Origin: a bacterium
Lineage (GTDB): Bacteria > UBA8248
Assembly (NCBI GenBank): GCA_965221165.1
Contig: CBDCRP010000003.1
Location: forward strand, 1,632,001-1,696,000
Direction of reading: 5' to 3'
Length of the DNA: 64,000 nucleotides
Each line of letters starts with the position of its first letter. The first letter of the stretch is position 1. Positions 38,548 through 47,102 of this stretch are shown piece after piece. A model generated the notes under the pieces. The model was not told the origin of the DNA. It was given only the letters and a program-made list of their open reading frames with translations, and searched no databases. A program made the translations under genes and the position numbers.

Positions 38548-39591
38548 CTACGAGGGATGCTTTGGGGCGGGAAAATGCTCCCAAGCGAGGTTTTCCAATG
38601 CGAAAACCCCTTCCGCTCGCTTCACGGAAACTCCTTTTGAGGCCGACACGATTTCTCCGATAGGCGTGAGCGGTGCCCCTCCCGCCTGTCGGACAATCTC
38701 TTGAAGCGCATGGACAGATTCTACAGGCGTCGTGACGAGAAGCTCGTAATCCTCTCCACCATGCAAGGCCCATCCAAGAGGATTTTTCGCCACGGTGGAC
38801 GCCAATTCCAGTAAGGCGTTGGAGATGGACAGTTCTTTCTCCCAAATGATTGCGCCTACTCCACTCGCATCACACAGGTGATGGATATCACCCGCCAGAC
38901 CATCACTGATGTCCATCATGGATGTGGCCAACCCCGATTCCGCGATGGCTGCCCCCTCCGCGACACGGGGCTGCGGCTTGAGTTGTGCGGAGGTAAGCGA
39001 GGTATACAAATCTTCCCGGATTCCGATTTGCGGTTGAGATAATAAATGTAGCCCCGCGACGGCATCGCCCAGGTGCCCCGTCACCAGAATTCGGTCTCCC
39101 ACGCGGGCACCGCTTCGGCGAAGAACTTTCTCCGCCATCATCTCGCCGACTAGAAACACATCGATGAACAAAGGGCCACTCGTTCGCGTGACGTTTCCGC
39201 CCAGAATCAAAATATCGTATCGCTCCGAGAGCGCACGCACCCCCTCATATACATCATCCAGGAACGAGACCGCCGTATCCTCGGGTATACCCAACGAGAT
39301 GAGCGCAAAGCGCGGCTTGCCCCCCATTGCCGCTACATCGCTTACGTTCACCGCCAGCGACTTGTAACCTACGGCGAAACCAGGAATACCCTCTGGGGAG
39401 GGAAAATGCACTCCGCTTACCTGCACATCGCACGTCACCACCCAGCATTTCCCATCTCCCGCTTTGATGACAGCCGCATCATCCCCATTACCGACGATGA
39501 CATCCGCGTTGTTCCCCACTGAACCGAGCCTGTTTCTCAAGCGCTCTATCAAGACGAACTCTCCGATCCCTTTCGCTGATTCGCTGTTCAC
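38548..39591 (-). CDS. thiL: Thiamine-monophosphate kinase
   Basis: GEFVLI, GDDAA, NVSDVAAMGG, DISDGL, GGEDYEL. Confidence 0.93.
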   Translation of the reverse strand: MNSESAKGIGEFVLIERLRNRLGSVGNNADVIVGNGDDAAVIKAGDGKCWVVTCDVQVSGVHFPSPEGIPGFAVGYKSLAVNVSDVAAMGGKPRFALISLGIPEDTAVSFLDDVYEGVRALSERYDILILGGNVTRTSGPLFIDVFLVGEMMAEKVLRRSGARVGDRILVTGHLGDAVAGLHLLSQPQIGIREDLYTSLTSAQLKPQPRVAEGAAIAESGLATSMMDISDGLAGDIHHLCDASGVGAIIWEKELSISNALLELASTVAKNPLGWALHGGEDYELLVTTPVESVHALQEIVRQAGGAPLTPIGEIVSASKGVSVKRAEGVFALENLAWEHFPAPKHPS

Positions 39592-40312: not shown

Positions 40313-40942
40313 TTATCCCTGGTCCATCGTTCCAGAACTTGACCAAGACAAAACGGACACTTTCATTTGGGTGGTCGGCTTATGTGCAGTTGATTTCCTT
40401 TGAAGTGTGCGGCGGATAATGCCGATCGCCTGATTGCTGCTCCAATCCGTCACTCCCACCACCCAAGCGACTAATTGCTGCTCGCGGTCGATGAGGTACA
40501 CCGTCGGCACGTAGCGCACATTGTGCATACGGCGAGACGCCCAGTTCTGATCGTGGAAAATCGGATAGTTCAACTTCTTGTTCTTGGCCCATTTTTGCAC
40601 AAACCCAGGGCCGGCCCTATCCACGGAAACAGCCAGAACCGTAAAACCCTCGTCCTCATATTTTTTCTGGAGGGCCGAAAACTTGGGCATCTCCTCCTCG
40701 CACAAAGGACACCATGTGGCGAAAAAAACGAGCATCACCACTTTGCCTTTAAAATCACTGAGTTTGTGCTGCTTTCCCGTGAGGTCCGGATATTGAAAAT
40801 CAGGGGGCGGCACGGAGTTTTCAGGAGCCATTCGCAAGACGTTAAAACGACTTTGGGCATCCGCCGGATCAGACGACACTGTCAGGAACAAGAGAACACC
40901 AAGAGCGAGGAAACACAGTCTGGAGAATGGAATTGGTCGCAT
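40313..40942 (-). CDS. TlpA/ResA-like periplasmic thiol-disulfide oxidoreductase
   Basis: Signal anchor, FFATWCPLCEEEMP, VPT cis-Pro loop. Confidence 0.88.
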   Translation of the reverse strand: MRPIPFSRLCFLALGVLLFLTVSSDPADAQSRFNVLRMAPENSVPPPDFQYPDLTGKQHKLSDFKGKVVMLVFFATWCPLCEEEMPKFSALQKKYEDEGFTVLAVSVDRAGPGFVQKWAKNKKLNYPIFHDQNWASRRMHNVRYVPTVYLIDREQQLVAWVVGVTDWSSNQAIGIIRRTLQRKSTAHKPTTQMKVSVLSWSSSGTMDQG

Positions 40943-41031
40943 GGTGCTCCCTTGTGTAGACTTAAAATAGCCCAATGCAAGATAGCATATTTCAGATTAT
41001 TCGAGCCAAAGGAGACTTGCAATACATTTTG

Positions 41032-41910
41032 ATGGAAAGGAAACCGGCCATGTGGCTCATCTTCGCCATGCTATCGCTTCTCATCCTTCATGTTTCCGCA
41101 CAGGGCGCACTAAATACCTGCGAGAGAGATTCCAAACTTATCAAAATCCCTGCGGGCCCTTTTTCGATGGGCAGCGACAGGGCCGAGCGTGATTATGGTT
41201 ATCGAATAGGCAGCCGCGCCGCGCGCAGATGGCGCTGGTTCGACAACTGGGAACTTCCGCGCAAACGCGTCGTCTTGGCCGAATACTTTATTGACAGGAA
41301 CCTGACGACTCAGGCCGAATACCGCCGCTTCGTGTGGGAGAACGGCCATCGCGCTCCTTTCATTTCGCCCAAAAATTATAAACATCAAGGCTATCTCGTT
41401 CATTCCTATGAGTCCGTGCGGCGCTATCTTTGGGGGAAAAACAAAGACGGTCGGCCGACATACTCGAAAGGTCTAGCGAATCATCCCGTCGTGCTCGTAA
41501 GTCAATCAGACGCGCAGGCCTACTGCATCTGGCGGGGCGGAAAAGCTCCAGCGAGATACCGACTGCCCACGGAGGCGGAATGGGAAAAGGCGGCGCGCGG
41601 CGCCGATGCCAGATATTTCCCCTGGGGCAACACCTTCGATCCCGAACGCCTGAACTTTGGCTACAAGGTGCACGCCACAACGCCCGTTGGCACGTATCCG
41701 AAGGGCAAAAGCCCGTATGGCGTGCTCGACATGGCGGGAAACGTCTTCGAGTGGACATCCACCCCGTTTTCAAAATCAAAAGCCACGATGAAAGGGGGTG
41801 GGTCCTGGGACGATCAGCCGGGTATCACGCGGGCAGCCGCTCGCCATGGACGGGACCCGAAGGCCCGGCACCTACTTTTTGGTTTTCGGTGTGTTTGCGT
41901 AAACCCATAA
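41032..41910 (+). CDS. Secreted FGE-sulfatase (SUMF1/EgtB/PvdO) domain protein
   Basis: FSMGS, HPVV, RLPTEAEWEKAARG, DMAGNVFEW, GFRC. Confidence 0.88.
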   Translation: MERKPAMWLIFAMLSLLILHVSAQGALNTCERDSKLIKIPAGPFSMGSDRAERDYGYRIGSRAARRWRWFDNWELPRKRVVLAEYFIDRNLTTQAEYRRFVWENGHRAPFISPKNYKHQGYLVHSYESVRRYLWGKNKDGRPTYSKGLANHPVVLVSQSDAQAYCIWRGGKAPARYRLPTEAEWEKAARGADARYFPWGNTFDPERLNFGYKVHATTPVGTYPKGKSPYGVLDMAGNVFEWTSTPFSKSKATMKGGGSWDDQPGITRAAARHGRDPKARHLLFGFRCVCVNP

Positions 41911-42085
41911 GACCAAATGACCCATGAAACATTGCCGATATCGTCAGAGTCACAAAATAGTTACATTCATCCATACTCGCTTGATGAAGGAATGCGCGTC
42001 CAGACAGGAAAATGCTTGAAGACCCTTCTTGCACATTCCTCATATAACTGAGAATCTCCTTCCCTTATCATCAGGGGAGCACGTC

Positions 42086-42685
42086 ATGGCTTGGATAGAA
42101 CCTATTTCTCCGGATTCCGCGGAGGGAACCACAAAAAAAATTATAGAAGGTCTGCGTAAGGCGAAAAAACCAATTCCCAAGATATTTCTTCAGATGGGCA
42201 GAAGGCCCGATGTTTTGGCCGGTCGCGAAATGCTCCGCAGTTCGGTCCATGGCGGCTCCAGCCTCGGAACGAGGCGGGAGGAATTGCTCGCCTTTTATGT
42301 GGCGGCTCATGGGGGGTGATACGGCTGAGCGATGAACCACGGACAGTTGTTCCGTGACGCGTGCGATGATGCCTCCATCGCTGAAGTAGGCCAGGTATTA
42401 GACGAGCCAAAACGCGCGAGAATTCTCGACCCTGCCGACCGCGCCATGCTCGCCTATGCGGAAAAAATGACCCATACGCCTCATCAAATGAAAAAAACAG
42501 ACATCGAGCGCTTAAGGTGTGCCGGCTTCAGCGAGGAAAACATCGTCGACATCATCGCGGCTGCGGCTTACAGAAACTTCGCCAATTCGATCAACTACGC
42601 CTACGGACACGTAGAGCAAAATCCCAAAGGCCCAAAGGAGCTGAAATCGGCCATTCAGAGGTTAAAAAAGAAAATTCGTGGATAA
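42086..42685 (+). CDS. AhpD/peroxidase-related selenoprotein with a UxxU motif (TGA at 42317-42319 and 42326-42328), 199 aa
   Basis: Two in-frame track ORFs joined by GGG GGG TGA TAC GGC TGA GCG ATG AAC CAC; REELLAFYVAAHGG-U-YG-U-AMNH aligns with the AhpD-family ExxAxxVxxxxxCxxCxxxH motif; RBS AGGGGAG. Confidence 0.8.
42329..42360 (+). promoter_or_regulatory. Bacterial SECIS-like hairpin after the UxxU codons
   Basis: GCG..CACGGA-CAGTTGT-TCCGTG..CGC; 17 nt separate the second UGA, and 26 nt the first, from the loop G. Confidence 0.55.
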
Positions 42686-43421
42686 AAAATCTCACGCGCT
42701 CTCATCTATTTCCTATCTGGGCTTGTTCATATCGAGCGCTTGCGCGCTGGCCGCTGTGGCGTCAGGGCTGGGTCATCGCTGGGGCTTATGGCATTTCAGC
42801 ATGGGATTTCAGATTTTCAAGGCCGCATCCATCATTGCGTTGATCTCCGTGGCCGTCTCCATAACGGGAGGCCTGTTTGCCCTGCGCGACGCTTCGAAGT
42901 TCAAGACTTCGGCCGCCGCCCTCGGCATCGCATTAGGTTTCACCGTAGCGGGCTTTCTTCACGCACACATGCAAATCTCGAGACGGGTACCCAAGATTCA
43001 CGACATCACGACAGACACTCAAAACCCGCCCTCTTTTCAAGACATCCTCCCACTGAGAAAAAGAGCGAAAAACCCACCCGCTTATGAGGGCATACGCATC
43101 GCACGGCTCCAGAAAAAAATGTATCCGGATATCAAGCCACTCATTTCCCGAGATTCAAAAGAGGAAATTTTCAAACGCGCTTTGGCCGCTGTACGCGCCA
43201 TCGGTTGGCAAGTGGTGACGTCAAAACCAGCCGAAGGACGTATCGAGGCGTATGACAATACTTTTTGGTATGGCTTTATCGATGACATCGTAATCCGGAT
43301 AACGTCGAATAATGGGATGACGCGCCTCGACATCCGCTCGAAATCCCGTGTGGGCGTAGGCGACATAGGCGCGAATGCCAGGCGAATTCGCACCTTTTTC
43401 GAAAAGCTAAAAGTAAGATAG
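42678..43421 (+). CDS. DUF1499 family membrane protein
   Basis: 3 TM segments, then IHDITTD, YPDIKP, GFIDDIVIR, RSKSRVGVGDIGANARRI; overlaps the UxxU gene stop. Confidence 0.85.
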   Translation: MDKKSHALSSISYLGLFISSACALAAVASGLGHRWGLWHFSMGFQIFKAASIIALISVAVSITGGLFALRDASKFKTSAAALGIALGFTVAGFLHAHMQISRRVPKIHDITTDTQNPPSFQDILPLRKRAKNPPAYEGIRIARLQKKMYPDIKPLISRDSKEEIFKRALAAVRAIGWQVVTSKPAEGRIEAYDNTFWYGFIDDIVIRITSNNGMTRLDIRSKSRVGVGDIGANARRIRTFFEKLKVR

Positions 43422-43497
43422 ACTGGGATATTCCACTTTTGTGATCGGGGATTCGCCATGAAATGATGATGTTTTGAGCATCGTATTGAGGACGCTA

Positions 43498-45816
43498 ATG
43501 TCTGAATACCTAATATTAGGCAAATCCATACCAAGACTCGATTCCGCAGAGAAAGTTTCCGGATTCGCCGATTTTGGAGATGACTTGCGCAGGCCCGGTT
43601 GCCTCACTGCGAAATTGCTCTTGAGTCCGCACCCCCATGCCCAAATCAAAAAAATCGACACCACCGATGCTTTGAAGATTCCCGGCGTACACGCTGTCGT
43701 CACGGCGGAGAATTTCTCCGGCATCCGCCACGGCAGGCTCGTGCGCGATGAACCGCTGCTCGCCATCGACAAAGTGCTTCACATCGGCGAGCGCGTGGCC
43801 GCCGTGGCCGCCGAAACCCCGGAAGCCGCGCAGGCCGCACTCAAGAAAATTCATGTAGATTATGAAGTGCTCCCCGCCGTATTCACGACAGACGACGCCC
43901 TGAAAGATGACGCTCCCCTCCTCCATGACTCCCTGGATGATTACACGTCGTTTCCGGGTATCGTGCGGTATGGAAACGTAGCCACCGATATTCTTATCCG
44001 ATCGGGCGACCCAATAGAGGAAGCGCTCACTCGGGCTGATTTCGTTTTCGAGGACGAATACGAAACGCCCCGCGTTCACCAGAATTATCTCGAACCCCGC
44101 GCCATGCTCGCGGAACCCGGACCCGAGGACAGCACGGTAGTCTATTCACCCACCCAGGCGGCTTTCGTGGTGCGCGCTATCGCTTCGGAAATACTCGAAC
44201 TTCCCATGAACAAACTACGCGTTGTGAGCACTCATGTAGGAGGCGCTTTCGGTGGCAAATCCCAACATCTACTGGAAGCCCTAGCCGTTCTTTTGAGCAG
44301 AAAATCGAACCGGCCCGTTCAACTGACTCTCAATCGCGAAGAGGAAACCATCACCGGAAACCCGAGGCACGCATACCGTATGCGCTATCGCACAGGCGTG
44401 ACGCGGGAAGGAAAAATCATCGGGCGCCACGTGCAAATAACATCGAACAACGGTGCCTATTGCATGACGGGTCCGATGGTGCTTGGAAAATCCTGCTACA
44501 CCAGTACGGGACCATACAAAATTCCCAATGTCAGGGTCGATGGTCTACTCGTATATACGAACCTTCCCCCCAGCGGTTCTTATCGGGGTCTGGGCGTGGC
44601 ACAGGTCGCTTTCGCCTGCGAGCGACATACTGACCGCATTGCTTCAGAATTAGGAATGGACCCACTCACTTTTCGGCTCCTTAATGCGATGGGTGAAAAC
44701 GATGCGGACCCCGCCGGTACGATTTTACAAAGCGTGAGCATAAAGGAAACGCTTGAACGCGCGGGCCAAAAAGCGGGCTGGGGGAAGCAGAAGGAGGAAA
44801 ATCAGGGCCTCAGAATCAGGCGGGGTTTGGGCATCGGCTGCGCGCGCTATCCCACGGGTGGAGGGGCATCGGGCGCCGTGGTGAAGGTGAACGAGGATGG
44901 GGGCTTGGCTGTATTGGCCGGCTGTTCCGACCTGGGCACGGGCGCGGCTACCTTGATGGCGCAGGTGGCGGCTGAGGTTCTGCAATCCGACATCGAAAAA
45001 GTTAGCGTTCGTATCGCCGACACCGAAACCACGCCCTTCGACTCCATCACCGCGGGTAGCCGCACCACGTTCAACATGGCGCACGCAGTGCGCATGGCGG
45101 CGGAAGATGCTCGCGAGCAATTGCTTCGCCAAGCGGCGCGCATGCTCGAATCATCCCCTGAGGACCTGGACATCGGCGATGGAAATATATTCATGCGCGC
45201 AGCGCCCTCGCGCGCCATTCCGTTCGCTGAAGTGGCGTATTCCGCTGTATGGAAAGGCGACGGACCCGTGACCGGTCGCGGTGCCTACCGTGGAGAGAAT
45301 CCTCCTCATCGGACGGATAATGTGCGTGGCCATCCAGAGCCCTCGAGACCCGGACCAGAATTTGCCACCCAAATCGCAGAAGTCGAAGTCGACACCGAGA
45401 CAGGAGAAACCAAGGTCTTAAGAATCACCAGCGCGCAAGATGTGGGCTTCGCCATGAACCCCCTCACCCTGAACGGACAGATAGAGGGCGGCATTGCGCA
45501 GGGGCTGGGCTGGGCTCTGGCCGAGCAGATTCACCATGAAAAGGGCGTCATCGTTCATGCGGATTTCGAGAGCCAACTCAACCCCACGAGTTTGGATGTC
45601 TCGGAAATCGAAAGCGTGATTGTGGAATCGCCCGATGTGGAAGGTCCCTTTGGAGCCAAGGGAGCGGGGGAAATGCCGCTCATTCCAGCGGCGCCCGCGA
45701 TTGCCAACGCGATCGCCGATGCCATCGGGGATCCGGCCAACCCGAACCTCAACAACCTGCCTATCGCACCGGAGGACATCGTTCGCGCGGTTCGCGAACA
45801 AAACGCTTCCGAATAA
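43498..45816 (+). CDS. Xanthine dehydrogenase family molybdopterin-binding large subunit
   Basis: SPHPHA, YLEP, VGGAFGGK, YRGLG, GSRTT, GQIEGG, GPFGAKGAGE. Confidence 0.93.
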   Translation: MSEYLILGKSIPRLDSAEKVSGFADFGDDLRRPGCLTAKLLLSPHPHAQIKKIDTTDALKIPGVHAVVTAENFSGIRHGRLVRDEPLLAIDKVLHIGERVAAVAAETPEAAQAALKKIHVDYEVLPAVFTTDDALKDDAPLLHDSLDDYTSFPGIVRYGNVATDILIRSGDPIEEALTRADFVFEDEYETPRVHQNYLEPRAMLAEPGPEDSTVVYSPTQAAFVVRAIASEILELPMNKLRVVSTHVGGAFGGKSQHLLEALAVLLSRKSNRPVQLTLNREEETITGNPRHAYRMRYRTGVTREGKIIGRHVQITSNNGAYCMTGPMVLGKSCYTSTGPYKIPNVRVDGLLVYTNLPPSGSYRGLGVAQVAFACERHTDRIASELGMDPLTFRLLNAMGENDADPAGTILQSVSIKETLERAGQKAGWGKQKEENQGLRIRRGLGIGCARYPTGGGASGAVVKVNEDGGLAVLAGCSDLGTGAATLMAQVAAEVLQSDIEKVSVRIADTETTPFDSITAGSRTTFNMAHAVRMAAEDAREQLLRQAARMLESSPEDLDIGDGNIFMRAAPSRAIPFAEVAYSAVWKGDGPVTGRGAYRGENPPHRTDNVRGHPEPSRPGPEFATQIAEVEVDTETGETKVLRITSAQDVGFAMNPLTLNGQIEGGIAQGLGWALAEQIHHEKGVIVHADFESQLNPTSLDVSEIESVIVESPDVEGPFGAKGAGEMPLIPAAPAIANAIADAIGDPANPNLNNLPIAPEDIVRAVREQNASE

Positions 45817-45821
45817 GCTTC

Positions 45822-47102
45822 TTAGTTTTTCAGTTCAAATTTCTCGTCATAAACATAAAAGTTCGATGACGCCGCGATATCTCGCGCCTGTGTGATGAGC
45901 TTGCGCGACAATCTTGAAATGTACGAATTCTTGAGAAACTCGACATAGAAATTGTAGTAAAAAGCATCGGGCCGCACATGAACGCGCACCCTGAGCCTCG
46001 CCGCACCCTCGGCTCGTCCTCTTCTGTATCGAAACGTGATGGATTTTTGAGGGGGAATGCGCGTGTCATAGATTTCGCGGCTAAAATCAGGCGAAAGTTT
46101 CCGCTCGATCACATTAATCTGCCTTGACCCCGGTATGGTTCGCCCACTCTTATTCTCCAGCTCGGAGATGACATCCACAGAAGGCGTAATATAGGTAGGG
46201 AAATAATGCCCGGCACCTGAGTTCGTGAGCTTAATTTCGGCCGTGACGATTTGCCCGGGCGCTTCCTCCCCGAGCGTGACGTCTATTTGCACGGCGCCCT
46301 GGGTCATATCCTTATCATGTATGCCTCGCCATAGATGTGCACGCCCGGGCATGTGACAACTCTGGCAAGCAATGCCCTCTTTGCCCCAAAGCGAGTTTTT
46401 CCACTCGTTGTACGTGTTCTGAATCGATTTCCCGTTCGGCCCGGGAAACGTGTGCTGGTGGCAACCCATGCAAAATTCAGCACGGCTGAAAAAAAGCGTG
46501 CGTTCTACCCCTGCGTGTGGACCACTCCTTGTCGTGTCATCCACCCCTTCGGGGGTTTCCTTCTTGGGTGGACCGTACACACGCCAATCACGCACATGGC
46601 ATGCGGCGCAGGCCAGTCCGTGCATCTCCAGTTTTCGATCGTGGATTGGGTTTTTCCGCCAATTCGCAAAAGGACCCGCACCCAACTTCGCGCGCTTCTG
46701 CTGTTCCGCCAAAGGCGCATGGCACTCATTACAACTTTGTGCTTCCTCGGGACTTGTTTTCCACATATCGACGAGTTGTCCATAGATGCCCGGGCTCATC
46801 GCGTTGGCGTGAAGCGTGGTCTTCCATTGTTTGTACTGATCGAGATGACAACTCCCGCAACTCTCGGGCAAAAGAGAACGCTCAGCGCCTTTGTATGATT
46901 TCGGCACCTCACCCATCGGGGACAAAGGGTAGGCGAAATGCTCCTTCACGAAATCCCGCCAATGTTTCCATTTGCCGGGAATCTCTTTTTCTTCCGCCGT
47001 CTCGATGGAGGAGAAGGCGAATCCATTTGATGTCTTCTGAAAAATAAAAGAGAGGACGAGAAAGTAAATAGCAACGATTATAACCATGAAATTCAAGCGC
47101 AT
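45822..47102 (-). CDS. Periplasmic pentaheme cytochrome c
   Basis: N-terminal signal/anchor; five CxxCH motifs (CGSCH, CNECH, CAACH, CMGCH, CQSCH); GAGHYFPT. Confidence 0.9.
   Translation of the reverse strand: MRLNFMVIIVAIYFLVLSFIFQKTSNGFAFSSIETAEEKEIPGKWKHWRDFVKEHFAYPLSPMGEVPKSYKGAERSLLPESCGSCHLDQYKQWKTTLHANAMSPGIYGQLVDMWKTSPEEAQSCNECHAPLAEQQKRAKLGAGPFANWRKNPIHDRKLEMHGLACAACHVRDWRVYGPPKKETPEGVDDTTRSGPHAGVERTLFFSRAEFCMGCHQHTFPGPNGKSIQNTYNEWKNSLWGKEGIACQSCHMPGRAHLWRGIHDKDMTQGAVQIDVTLGEEAPGQIVTAEIKLTNSGAGHYFPTYITPSVDVISELENKSGRTIPGSRQINVIERKLSPDFSREIYDTRIPPQKSITFRYRRGRAEGAARLRVRVHVRPDAFYYNFYVEFLKNSYISRLSRKLITQARDIAASSNFYVYDEKFELKN

Follow-up and report, generated by a model that had tools for sequence, protein, structure and literature searches.

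Among the open reading frames of a 64,000-nucleotide stretch of a bacterial genome (GTDB lineage Bacteria; UBA8248; assembly GCA_965221165.1, contig CBDCRP010000003.1, positions 1,632,001 to 1,696,000 of the forward strand), referred to here as the window, one at 42086-42685 (+) contains two TGA codons three codons apart, and the question is whether this is a broken gene or a single gene for an AhpD-like protein with selenocysteine (Sec, U) at both redox positions of the family's CxxC motif. Our data point toward the second answer. As far as comparative sequence analysis goes, the gene is a genuine and conserved UxxU variant of a known selenoprotein family. The reading as a whole, that is, an AhpD-fold protein with both redox residues Sec, decoded with the help of one shared hairpin, operating by diselenide chemistry and derived from a CYGU paralogue, we consider probable.

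A reading frame with two conserved TGA codons

The frame has 199 codons plus a TAA stop (42683-42685, +) and is preceded by a Shine-Dalgarno-like AGGGGAG (42073-42079, +), which was read from the sequence and lies 6 nt 5' of the ATG at 42086. TGA is in frame at codon 78 (42317-42319, +), the first CxxC position, and at codon 81 (42326-42328, +), the second; read-through yields 199 residues with the motif HGG-U-YG-U-AMNHGQLFR, in which U78 and U81 take the two Cys positions and H85 is the conserved His. An initial annotation, made from the letters alone, had already placed both TGAs on the two Cys positions with the His kept, and had noted a ribosome binding site, a hairpin that follows, and two otherwise intact halves. 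It had argued that two chance nonsense mutations at exactly these codons were unlikely and that the gene therefore codes for a UxxU AhpD-fold protein, and it had foreseen that standard annotation would call two fragments. The sequence features were all confirmed, the prediction about annotation was borne out, and the interpretation is supported, with every refuting circumstance that was checked coming out in its favor. Translation table 11 indeed splits the frame into open reading frames at 42029-42319 and 42332-42685, and public protein collections hold only the C-terminal piece, in 24 clusters of 117-118 residues that start at Met83, the two source-named ones being called 'hypothetical protein [Nitrospinae bacterium]'.

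The assignment is carried by the conservation of both TGAs. A search of 61 genomes (the window's own, 36 from its family, and 24 further out) yielded 23 full-length orthologues, one in each of 23 species genomes, all with two and only two TGAs in frame and with identities of 51-95%. Within the genus, 19 of 23 genomes have the gene (76-95% identity); in other genera of the family, 4 of 14 have it (51-60%), and outside the family, none of 24. In all 23, the TGAs occupy the identical two codons and the protein reads HGG-U-YG-U-A[MVI]NHG. The motif pattern was also scanned over 185,579 species, with one genome per species, and over metagenome contigs. The species-wide scan returned 20 records, all 20 of which are true orthologues with both TGAs and the motif through NHG and stem from metagenome-assembled genomes (MAGs) labelled 'Nitrospinota bacterium', 'Nitrospinaceae bacterium' or 'bacterium'; the metagenome scan returned nine contigs, eight of which are true orthologues by the same features. 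The ninth (L075) is a chance pattern match and not an orthologue, and a sequence that had been listed with two TGAs at 33% identity (G025:C36) turned out to be a CFYU protein whose second TGA is a genuine stop. So far, and on sequence records, the UxxU AhpD-like form appears confined to one family of Nitrospinota-labelled MAGs, a marine group. One species of the genus (G009) has no full gene of this type; it holds only the last 85 codons, in two copies (76% identity; C4:127136-127390 and C5:835962-836216) that are possibly remnants.

Selection has acted on both sides of the TGAs. Measured against the window copy in 18 same-genus orthologues (synonymous divergence, dS, of 0.2-1.3), the ratio of nonsynonymous to synonymous substitution rates (dN/dS) is 0.07-0.24 over codons 1-77 and 0.06-0.25 over codons 82-199, well below 1 in either part, and by this measure purifying selection acts on each half. 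Codons 79 and 80, which separate the TGAs, and codon 82, directly after them, show synonymous changes only. Codon 83, at which the deposited C-terminal piece starts, is GTC, GTA, ATT or GTG in four distant orthologues, so that the C-terminal half has no ATG restart of its own at this place. An assembly error, named by the initial annotation as a refuting circumstance, was checked with independent assemblies: contigs from runs X1 and X2, which are possibly the window's own source, show no difference over 42000-42760, and contigs from two further samples, X3 and X5, show 45 differences over 761 positions (~94% identity), with none on either TGA among the 38 differences listed. Chance and sequencing or assembly error are excluded because both TGAs are conserved across species. 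A pseudogene, a pair of small genes or an assembly error would account for the two open reading frames under table 11 and for the 117-118 aa piece that databases carry as a protein. These readings are effectively refuted by the agreement of independent contigs, the presence of both TGAs in the 23 species genomes plus 28 further records, the low dN/dS of both halves, the missing ATG in distant orthologues, and a predicted fold that needs both halves.

With Cys substituted for Sec, the protein matches the NCBIfam model TIGR01926 ('peroxidase-related enzyme') with 90.5 bits at a cut-off of 81.8; the Pfam CMD match is weak and sub-threshold (17.7 versus 23), and NCBIfam holds no model specific to the UxxU form. 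An AlphaFold2 model built from a 20-row alignment (predicted local distance difference test score [pLDDT] of 93.0; predicted template modeling [TM] score of 0.88) is all-helical with ten helices. The best Foldseek match is AhpD of D. radiodurans (6k40; TM score 0.75/0.79), followed by structural-genomics 'peroxidase-related proteins' of the TIGR01926 type (2prr, 3c1l, 2oyo, and 2pfx), with a probability of 1.00 for 6k40, 2prr, 3c1l, and 2oyo; the debrominase Bmp8 and the AhpD proteins of S. pneumoniae and M. tuberculosis are more distant. Consistent with this, a profile search of the PDB sequences found 6k40 with an expectation value (E) of 1.1e-30, and the C-x-Y-C-x-x-x-H of the solved proteins was aligned to U78, U81, and H85. 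The active-site motif of AhpD is defined as C-x-x-C-x3-H with an upstream Glu, and the window protein reads E66-x11-U78-x-x-U81-x3-H85. In one alignment, the motif His is kept in all rows and Glu66 in most of them, with E65-Q66 in two distant orthologues and A65-E66 in several same-genus rows. The residues of homologues at positions 78 and 81, which the initial annotation had proposed to tabulate, fit as well: in an alignment of 150 rows (the Cys-substituted query plus the 149 best representatives from a library of 1.84 billion proteins), 92 have Cys, Cys, and His at the three motif columns, 10 are gapped at all three, a further 5 have a gap in one of the motif positions or in both, and most others keep one Cys. 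The gene belongs to the AhpD/CMD superfamily, subfamily TIGR01926, and its product has the all-helical AhpD fold, not a thioredoxin fold of the SelL type.

The genome is equipped for Sec insertion, a further point that the initial annotation had wished to see confirmed. The genes selA and selB are adjacent (C3:1580000-1584211), ~50 kb upstream of the window, and selD (C2:975065-976027, -) contains one in-frame TGA and hence codes for a Sec-type SelD. A single tRNA-Sec(tca) was found by both aragorn and the Rfam model RF01852 (75.9 bits). Aragorn lists this one tRNA-SeC and one ordinary tRNA-Cys(gca), and RF01852 has one match above threshold, its sub-threshold matches coinciding with ordinary Leu, Ser, Tyr, and Arg tRNAs or with apparent duplicated 3' ends of the transfer-messenger RNA (tmRNA). 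Judged by gene content, the Sec machinery (selA, selB, selC, and selD) is complete. Otherwise, TGA is the commonest stop codon of the genome, ending 1258 of 2839 open frames of at least 300 codons, and is therefore not reassigned. An AIR-synthase-related protein (38548-39591, -) beside thiE was considered as a second SelD and rejected; its match to the selD model is sub-threshold (74 bits), and by context it is a ThiL-like kinase.

The hairpin downstream of the UGA codons

How can two UGAs that are so close to each other be decoded? A hairpin that resembles a selenocysteine insertion sequence (SECIS), CACGGA-CAGUUGU-UCCGUG, follows the TGAs at 42338-42356 (+). Its 6-bp stem (CACGGA/UCCGUG) is extended by one C-G pair and a bulged U; the loop is AGUU, and the predicted energy is -8.2 kcal/mol. 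The loop lies 16 nt from TGA81 and 25 nt from TGA78, and the base of the stem 9 nt and 18 nt, respectively. A bacterial SECIS model has been published that calls for a loop of 3-9 nt, a G in the first two loop positions, a distance of 16-37 nt between UGA and loop, and an energy not above -7.5 kcal/mol (PMC13188914; here and below, papers are cited for the accessible parts of their texts). The window hairpin, with G second in AGUU and with the spacings and energy just given, agrees with it in each respect, and with its loop at 16 and 25 nt a single hairpin is in range of both UGAs.

Several observations argue for a function of this hairpin. Over 18 distinct orthologue rows, 98.4% of the cells are paired, versus 25-43% with the partners slid against each other. 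In distant orthologues, the loop is GGUC or GGUCC, and for two of them (L040 and L041) energy minimization returns this hairpin, with a z score of about -2. Furthermore, a single codon is used in all 23 sequences at only 3 of the 53 invariant degenerate columns, and two of these three (His85 CAC and Phe89 TTC) lie in the stem (hypergeometric p ~0.006); Gly86 has only GGA or GGG codons, either of which pairs with U, and Arg90 is CGT wherever it is Arg. This pattern at synonymous sites points to a constraint on the hairpin at the level of the RNA. In our model, SelB with Sec-tRNA(Sec) would bind this one hairpin and deliver Sec twice, three codons apart.

Other RNA structures were considered. 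A helix formed by ACGGCUG (42321-42327) and CAGUUGU (42344-42350), spanning 42321-42350 (+), is 98.4% paired and kept through five one-sided changes. It pairs bases between the UGAs with the SECIS loop, would lie inside the ribosome while UGA78 is being decoded, and so would not act at that step. A long-range pairing GCGAUG/CAUCGC in the 91-nt fold was rejected, being broken in L028 and L034, and so was a small hairpin whose loop includes UGA81; it occurs only in L040 and L041 and is therefore not conserved. A search of 42000-42800 against Rfam at E values of up to 10 gave no match.

Origin and possible chemistry of the UxxU site

The history of the second Sec can be read from the paralogues. 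A tree built from 23 sequences with Sec at both positions (UU), 8 with Cys followed by Sec (CU), and a pair of paralogues as outgroup can be read as showing one UU clade, although with weak support (Shimodaira-Hasegawa approximate likelihood ratio test value of 76), beside the CU clade, and one state change is needed. The CU clade reads CYGU, uses TGC or TGT as codon 78, and carries the hairpin at the same place as the UU clade. In the simplest history, a CYGU paralogue would have been duplicated, and a single-base change from TGC to TGA would then have hit a Cys codon 78 that was already in reach of the SECIS. All members of the UU clade have His75 and Ala82, in place of the Ile or Leu and the Thr of the CU clade, which suggests a pocket that has adapted to the new Sec.

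As to the reaction, U81 would be the residue that attacks an oxidized partner; its position is Sec in every CxxU paralogue. We take it to be equivalent to the second Cys of M. tuberculosis AhpD, the nucleophile towards AhpC. U78 would resolve the intermediate, giving an intramolecular diselenide, and the protein would cycle between diselenol and diselenide with some reductant that recycles the diselenide. Such a cycle may serve the reduction of a peroxiredoxin, of a hydroperoxide, or of another oxidized or electrophilic substrate. The protein, of ~22 kDa and without an evident signal peptide, is probably cytoplasmic. Possible partners are at hand: the genome has 13 matches to AhpC/TSA (PF00578), 7 of them with one in-frame TGA (e.g., C2:479296-479655) and none with two, and these seven are probable Sec-type, peroxiredoxin-like proteins. 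Residue 93 varies within the clade; it is Cys (in FRDAC) in most genus-level orthologues and in L040 and L076, Ser in L069 and L036, and Thr or Ser in L041, L042, and L044. Some members of the UU clade may have in C93 a third redox residue.

How does this protein compare with known systems? With the CxxU AhpD-like selenoproteins, three of which are paralogues in the same genome, it shares the fold, the hidden Markov model family, Sec as the second of the two motif residues, and a SECIS that follows immediately, and it differs from them by Sec at the first motif position and by His75 and Ala82 in place of the Ile/Leu and Thr of the CU clade. The Cys-type AhpD/TIGR01926 structures (6k40, Mlr4105 [3c1l], 2prr, 2oyo, and 2pfx) are alike in fold (TM scores of 0.67-0.79; E values of 1e-30 to 1e-21) with C-x-x-C-x3-H aligned, but all are CxxC and only 21-28% identical to the window protein. 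M. tuberculosis AhpD (1knc and 1gu9) has the superfamily core and the motif in common but is distant (E = 0.001; TM scores of 0.44-0.57), and no lipoamide-system neighbor is seen at the window locus. SelL is a eukaryotic UxxU protein of the thioredoxin fold, for which a diselenide has been proposed or shown and whose SECIS is in the 3' untranslated region; apart from the UxxU motif, fold and type of SECIS differ, and it is not a relative of the window protein. Bacterial UxxU selenoproteins of other folds have two UGAs three codons apart as well, presumably with one SECIS, and differ in fold.

What is already in print can be delimited. The initial annotation was right in stating that CxxU AhpD-like selenoproteins exist: the first (COG2128/TIGR01926) was described in 2005 from the Sargasso Sea metagenome (PMC1088965), and catalogues of 2022 and 2026 give the TIGR01926 AhpD-like family, in their accessible parts, as 'CxxU, 1 Sec' only (PMC9312934 and PMC13188914). 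In bacteria, UxxU is on record for a peroxiredoxin-like thiol:disulfide oxidoreductase, the metal-binding family NF041115, FmdB, and, since 2026, Group 4 [NiFeSe] hydrogenases (PMC13582414 for the hydrogenases). No mention of a UxxU AhpD-like protein was found in the accessible text of the open selenoprotein literature (PMC9312934, PMC13188914, PMC2398784, PMC13326102, PMC1088965, PMC1976440, PMC13582414, and bioRxiv 10.1101/2022.07.06.499078), a scope that leaves aside supplements and subscription journals; such genes may already be listed in paper supplements or in BSepDB, which handles proteins with at least two Sec and has a page for the AhpD-like family. Hence, new is UxxU on the AhpD-like family, and already in print are CxxU in this family and UxxU in other bacterial families. 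With moderate confidence, we go one step further and propose that this is the first natural diselenide redox center on the AhpD fold, with both Sec residues inserted by way of one shared SECIS, and that it evolved when one TGC codon of a CxxU ancestor, already within range of the SECIS, changed to TGA.

The case has a wider bearing. Few predicted marine selenoproteins are as abundant as the AhpD-like ones, and we know of no AhpD-like selenoprotein that has been biochemically characterized as a selenoenzyme. The UxxU form stands beside a CxxU sister paralogue (~47% identity) in the same genomes, which offers a comparison of diselenide and selenylsulfide on one scaffold. For decoding, it is a test case of whether one bacterial SECIS can load SelB anew when a second UGA follows nine bases after the first. 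If our model is true, the gene would offer a small bacterial setting in which to study the tandem insertion of Sec and to ask what a diselenide achieves that is out of reach for a selenylsulfide. It also marks an annotation gap, with a C-terminal fragment in the databases and no family model for the UxxU form.

A number of points weigh against our model. Selenium insertion and the diselenide bond are both things that we infer, and none of the listed sequencing runs that contain the gene is an RNA run. Regarding the RNA, compensatory double base changes are not seen in the hairpin, as its stem encodes the conserved NHG..FR. Its energy is marginal for 17 of 23 orthologues (-7.6 kcal/mol in 14, -7.4 in one, and -6.8 in two), and the whole 91-nt region after the TGAs is no stabler than shuffled sequences (z = +0.34). 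RNAalifold prefers the alternative helix, which is as conserved as the SECIS-like hairpin and mutually exclusive with it, and the distance to the stem base is longer for UGA78 (18 nt) than for UGA81 (9 nt). That one SECIS may serve two UGAs is raised as a mere possibility in the accessible part of the 2026 paper on UxxU hydrogenases (PMC13582414). Regarding the protein, the six-frame score with TIGR01926 is 75.3, under the cut-off, when the TGAs are read as stops, and it is family membership that suggests a peroxide-related reduction. The conserved neighbor is no peroxiredoxin; it is DUF1499, a family without an assigned function.

In one alternative reading, only U81 would be Sec and UGA78 would be decoded as Cys, for example by a SelB-dependent tRNA of the tRNA(ReC)/SelC* type or by a mischarged tRNA, leaving an ordinary CxxU AhpD-like selenoprotein. 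In its favor, the sister paralogue clade is CYGU, and according to the accessible text of PMC13582414, tRNA(ReC)-like genes are enriched in the genomes with UxxU hydrogenases and their products read UGA as Cys before a SECIS. We nevertheless regard decoding as Cys as quite improbable: aragorn and RF01852, a search that is not exhaustive for unusual allo-tRNAs, found no second tRNA-Sec-like gene, and if Cys were wanted at position 78, TGC or TGT would be expected in some of the orthologues at a dS of ~1, but it is seen in 0 of 23. Two weak RF01852 matches at C3:1497252-1498581 (-) were examined as tRNA(ReC) candidates and rejected; their shared 3' part ends in a T-arm and an acceptor-like end, and they look like the end of the tmRNA gene and a copy of it ~1.2 kb away, as at an integration site. 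It is also imaginable that UGA78 is mainly a stop or an attenuator with a regulatory and not a catalytic role, so that most ribosomes end after 77 residues and only a minor fraction, dependent on selenium, goes on to make the full-length protein. The bacteria studied insert Sec inefficiently. Two successive insertions would compound the inefficiency, and the SECIS stem is farther from UGA78 than from UGA81. However, TGA78 sits exactly on the column of a catalytic Cys, the invariance of His75 in the UU clade, compared with Ile/Leu in the CU clade, suggests an active site co-adapted to residue 78, and the DUF1499 gene begins before the frame has ended, as would suit ribosomes that get that far; an attenuator is, in our view, improbable.

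A last alternative accepts both Sec residues and assigns them to another job, either the binding of a soft metal or metalloid by two selenols or a reductive dehalogenation like that of Bmp8. Bmp8 was matched too (6ohi, E = 1e-07; Foldseek TM scores of 0.66-0.70), a metal-binding UxxU selenoprotein family (NF041115) exists, and the absence of a conserved peroxiredoxin neighbor, with seven Sec-type AhpC/TSA genes elsewhere in the genome, would fit such a role. On the other hand, the TIGR01926/AhpD structures (E = 1e-30 to 1e-21) are far closer than Bmp8, and the AhpD-motif His is kept throughout and Glu66 in most rows. We consider a different chemistry unlikely, and an AhpD-like redox protein that cycles between diselenol and diselenide remains the explanation that we prefer.

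Neighboring genes and other selenoprotein candidates

The gene for the DUF1499 membrane protein (42678-43421, +) has a GTG start that overlaps the 3' end of the UxxU AhpD-like gene and is the conserved downstream neighbor, present in all genus-level orthologues with the flank covered and in L040 and L061. The genes upstream are variable. In the window, they code for an FGE-sulfatase-domain protein (40975-41910, +) and, divergently, for a TlpA/redoxin-type thiol:disulfide oxidoreductase with a WCPLC motif (40313-40975, -), both with a hydrophobic, signal-like N-terminus; these two are present in only some genomes, and thiE takes the place of the FGE-sulfatase gene in most of the genus. A scan for promoters and terminators found no promoter and nothing informative close to the UxxU AhpD-like gene. 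After DUF1499, at 43474-47102, the window has a molybdenum-cofactor-binding subunit of the xanthine dehydrogenase family (+) beside a multiheme cytochrome (-), and in loci with a far-reaching flank, the multiheme cytochrome follows the molybdenum subunit or, in L040 and L061, comes directly after DUF1499.

The accessible part of a database paper counts 'Nitrospinota'-labelled MAGs of the GTDB phylum UBA8248 among the bacteria richest in selenoprotein genes (48-54). The genome studied here is rich in selenoprotein candidates, and all four of its TIGR01926 matches have a TGA; besides the UYGU protein of the window, these are three AhpD-like genes with one in-frame TGA each (C2:424752-425327, -; C3:337730-338242, -; and C2:1020100-1020630, -) and with the motifs CYGU, CFYU, and CAYU. 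Two more AhpD-like paralogues of the genome are CxxC. Matches to the metal-binding family NF041115 in the genome are only of the Cys type and sub-threshold, none with a TGA. Two of the TGA-bearing AhpC/TSA genes are adjacent to each other, at C3:1846493-1847536. The CFYU-T paralogue resembles NCBIfam NF041238 by name.

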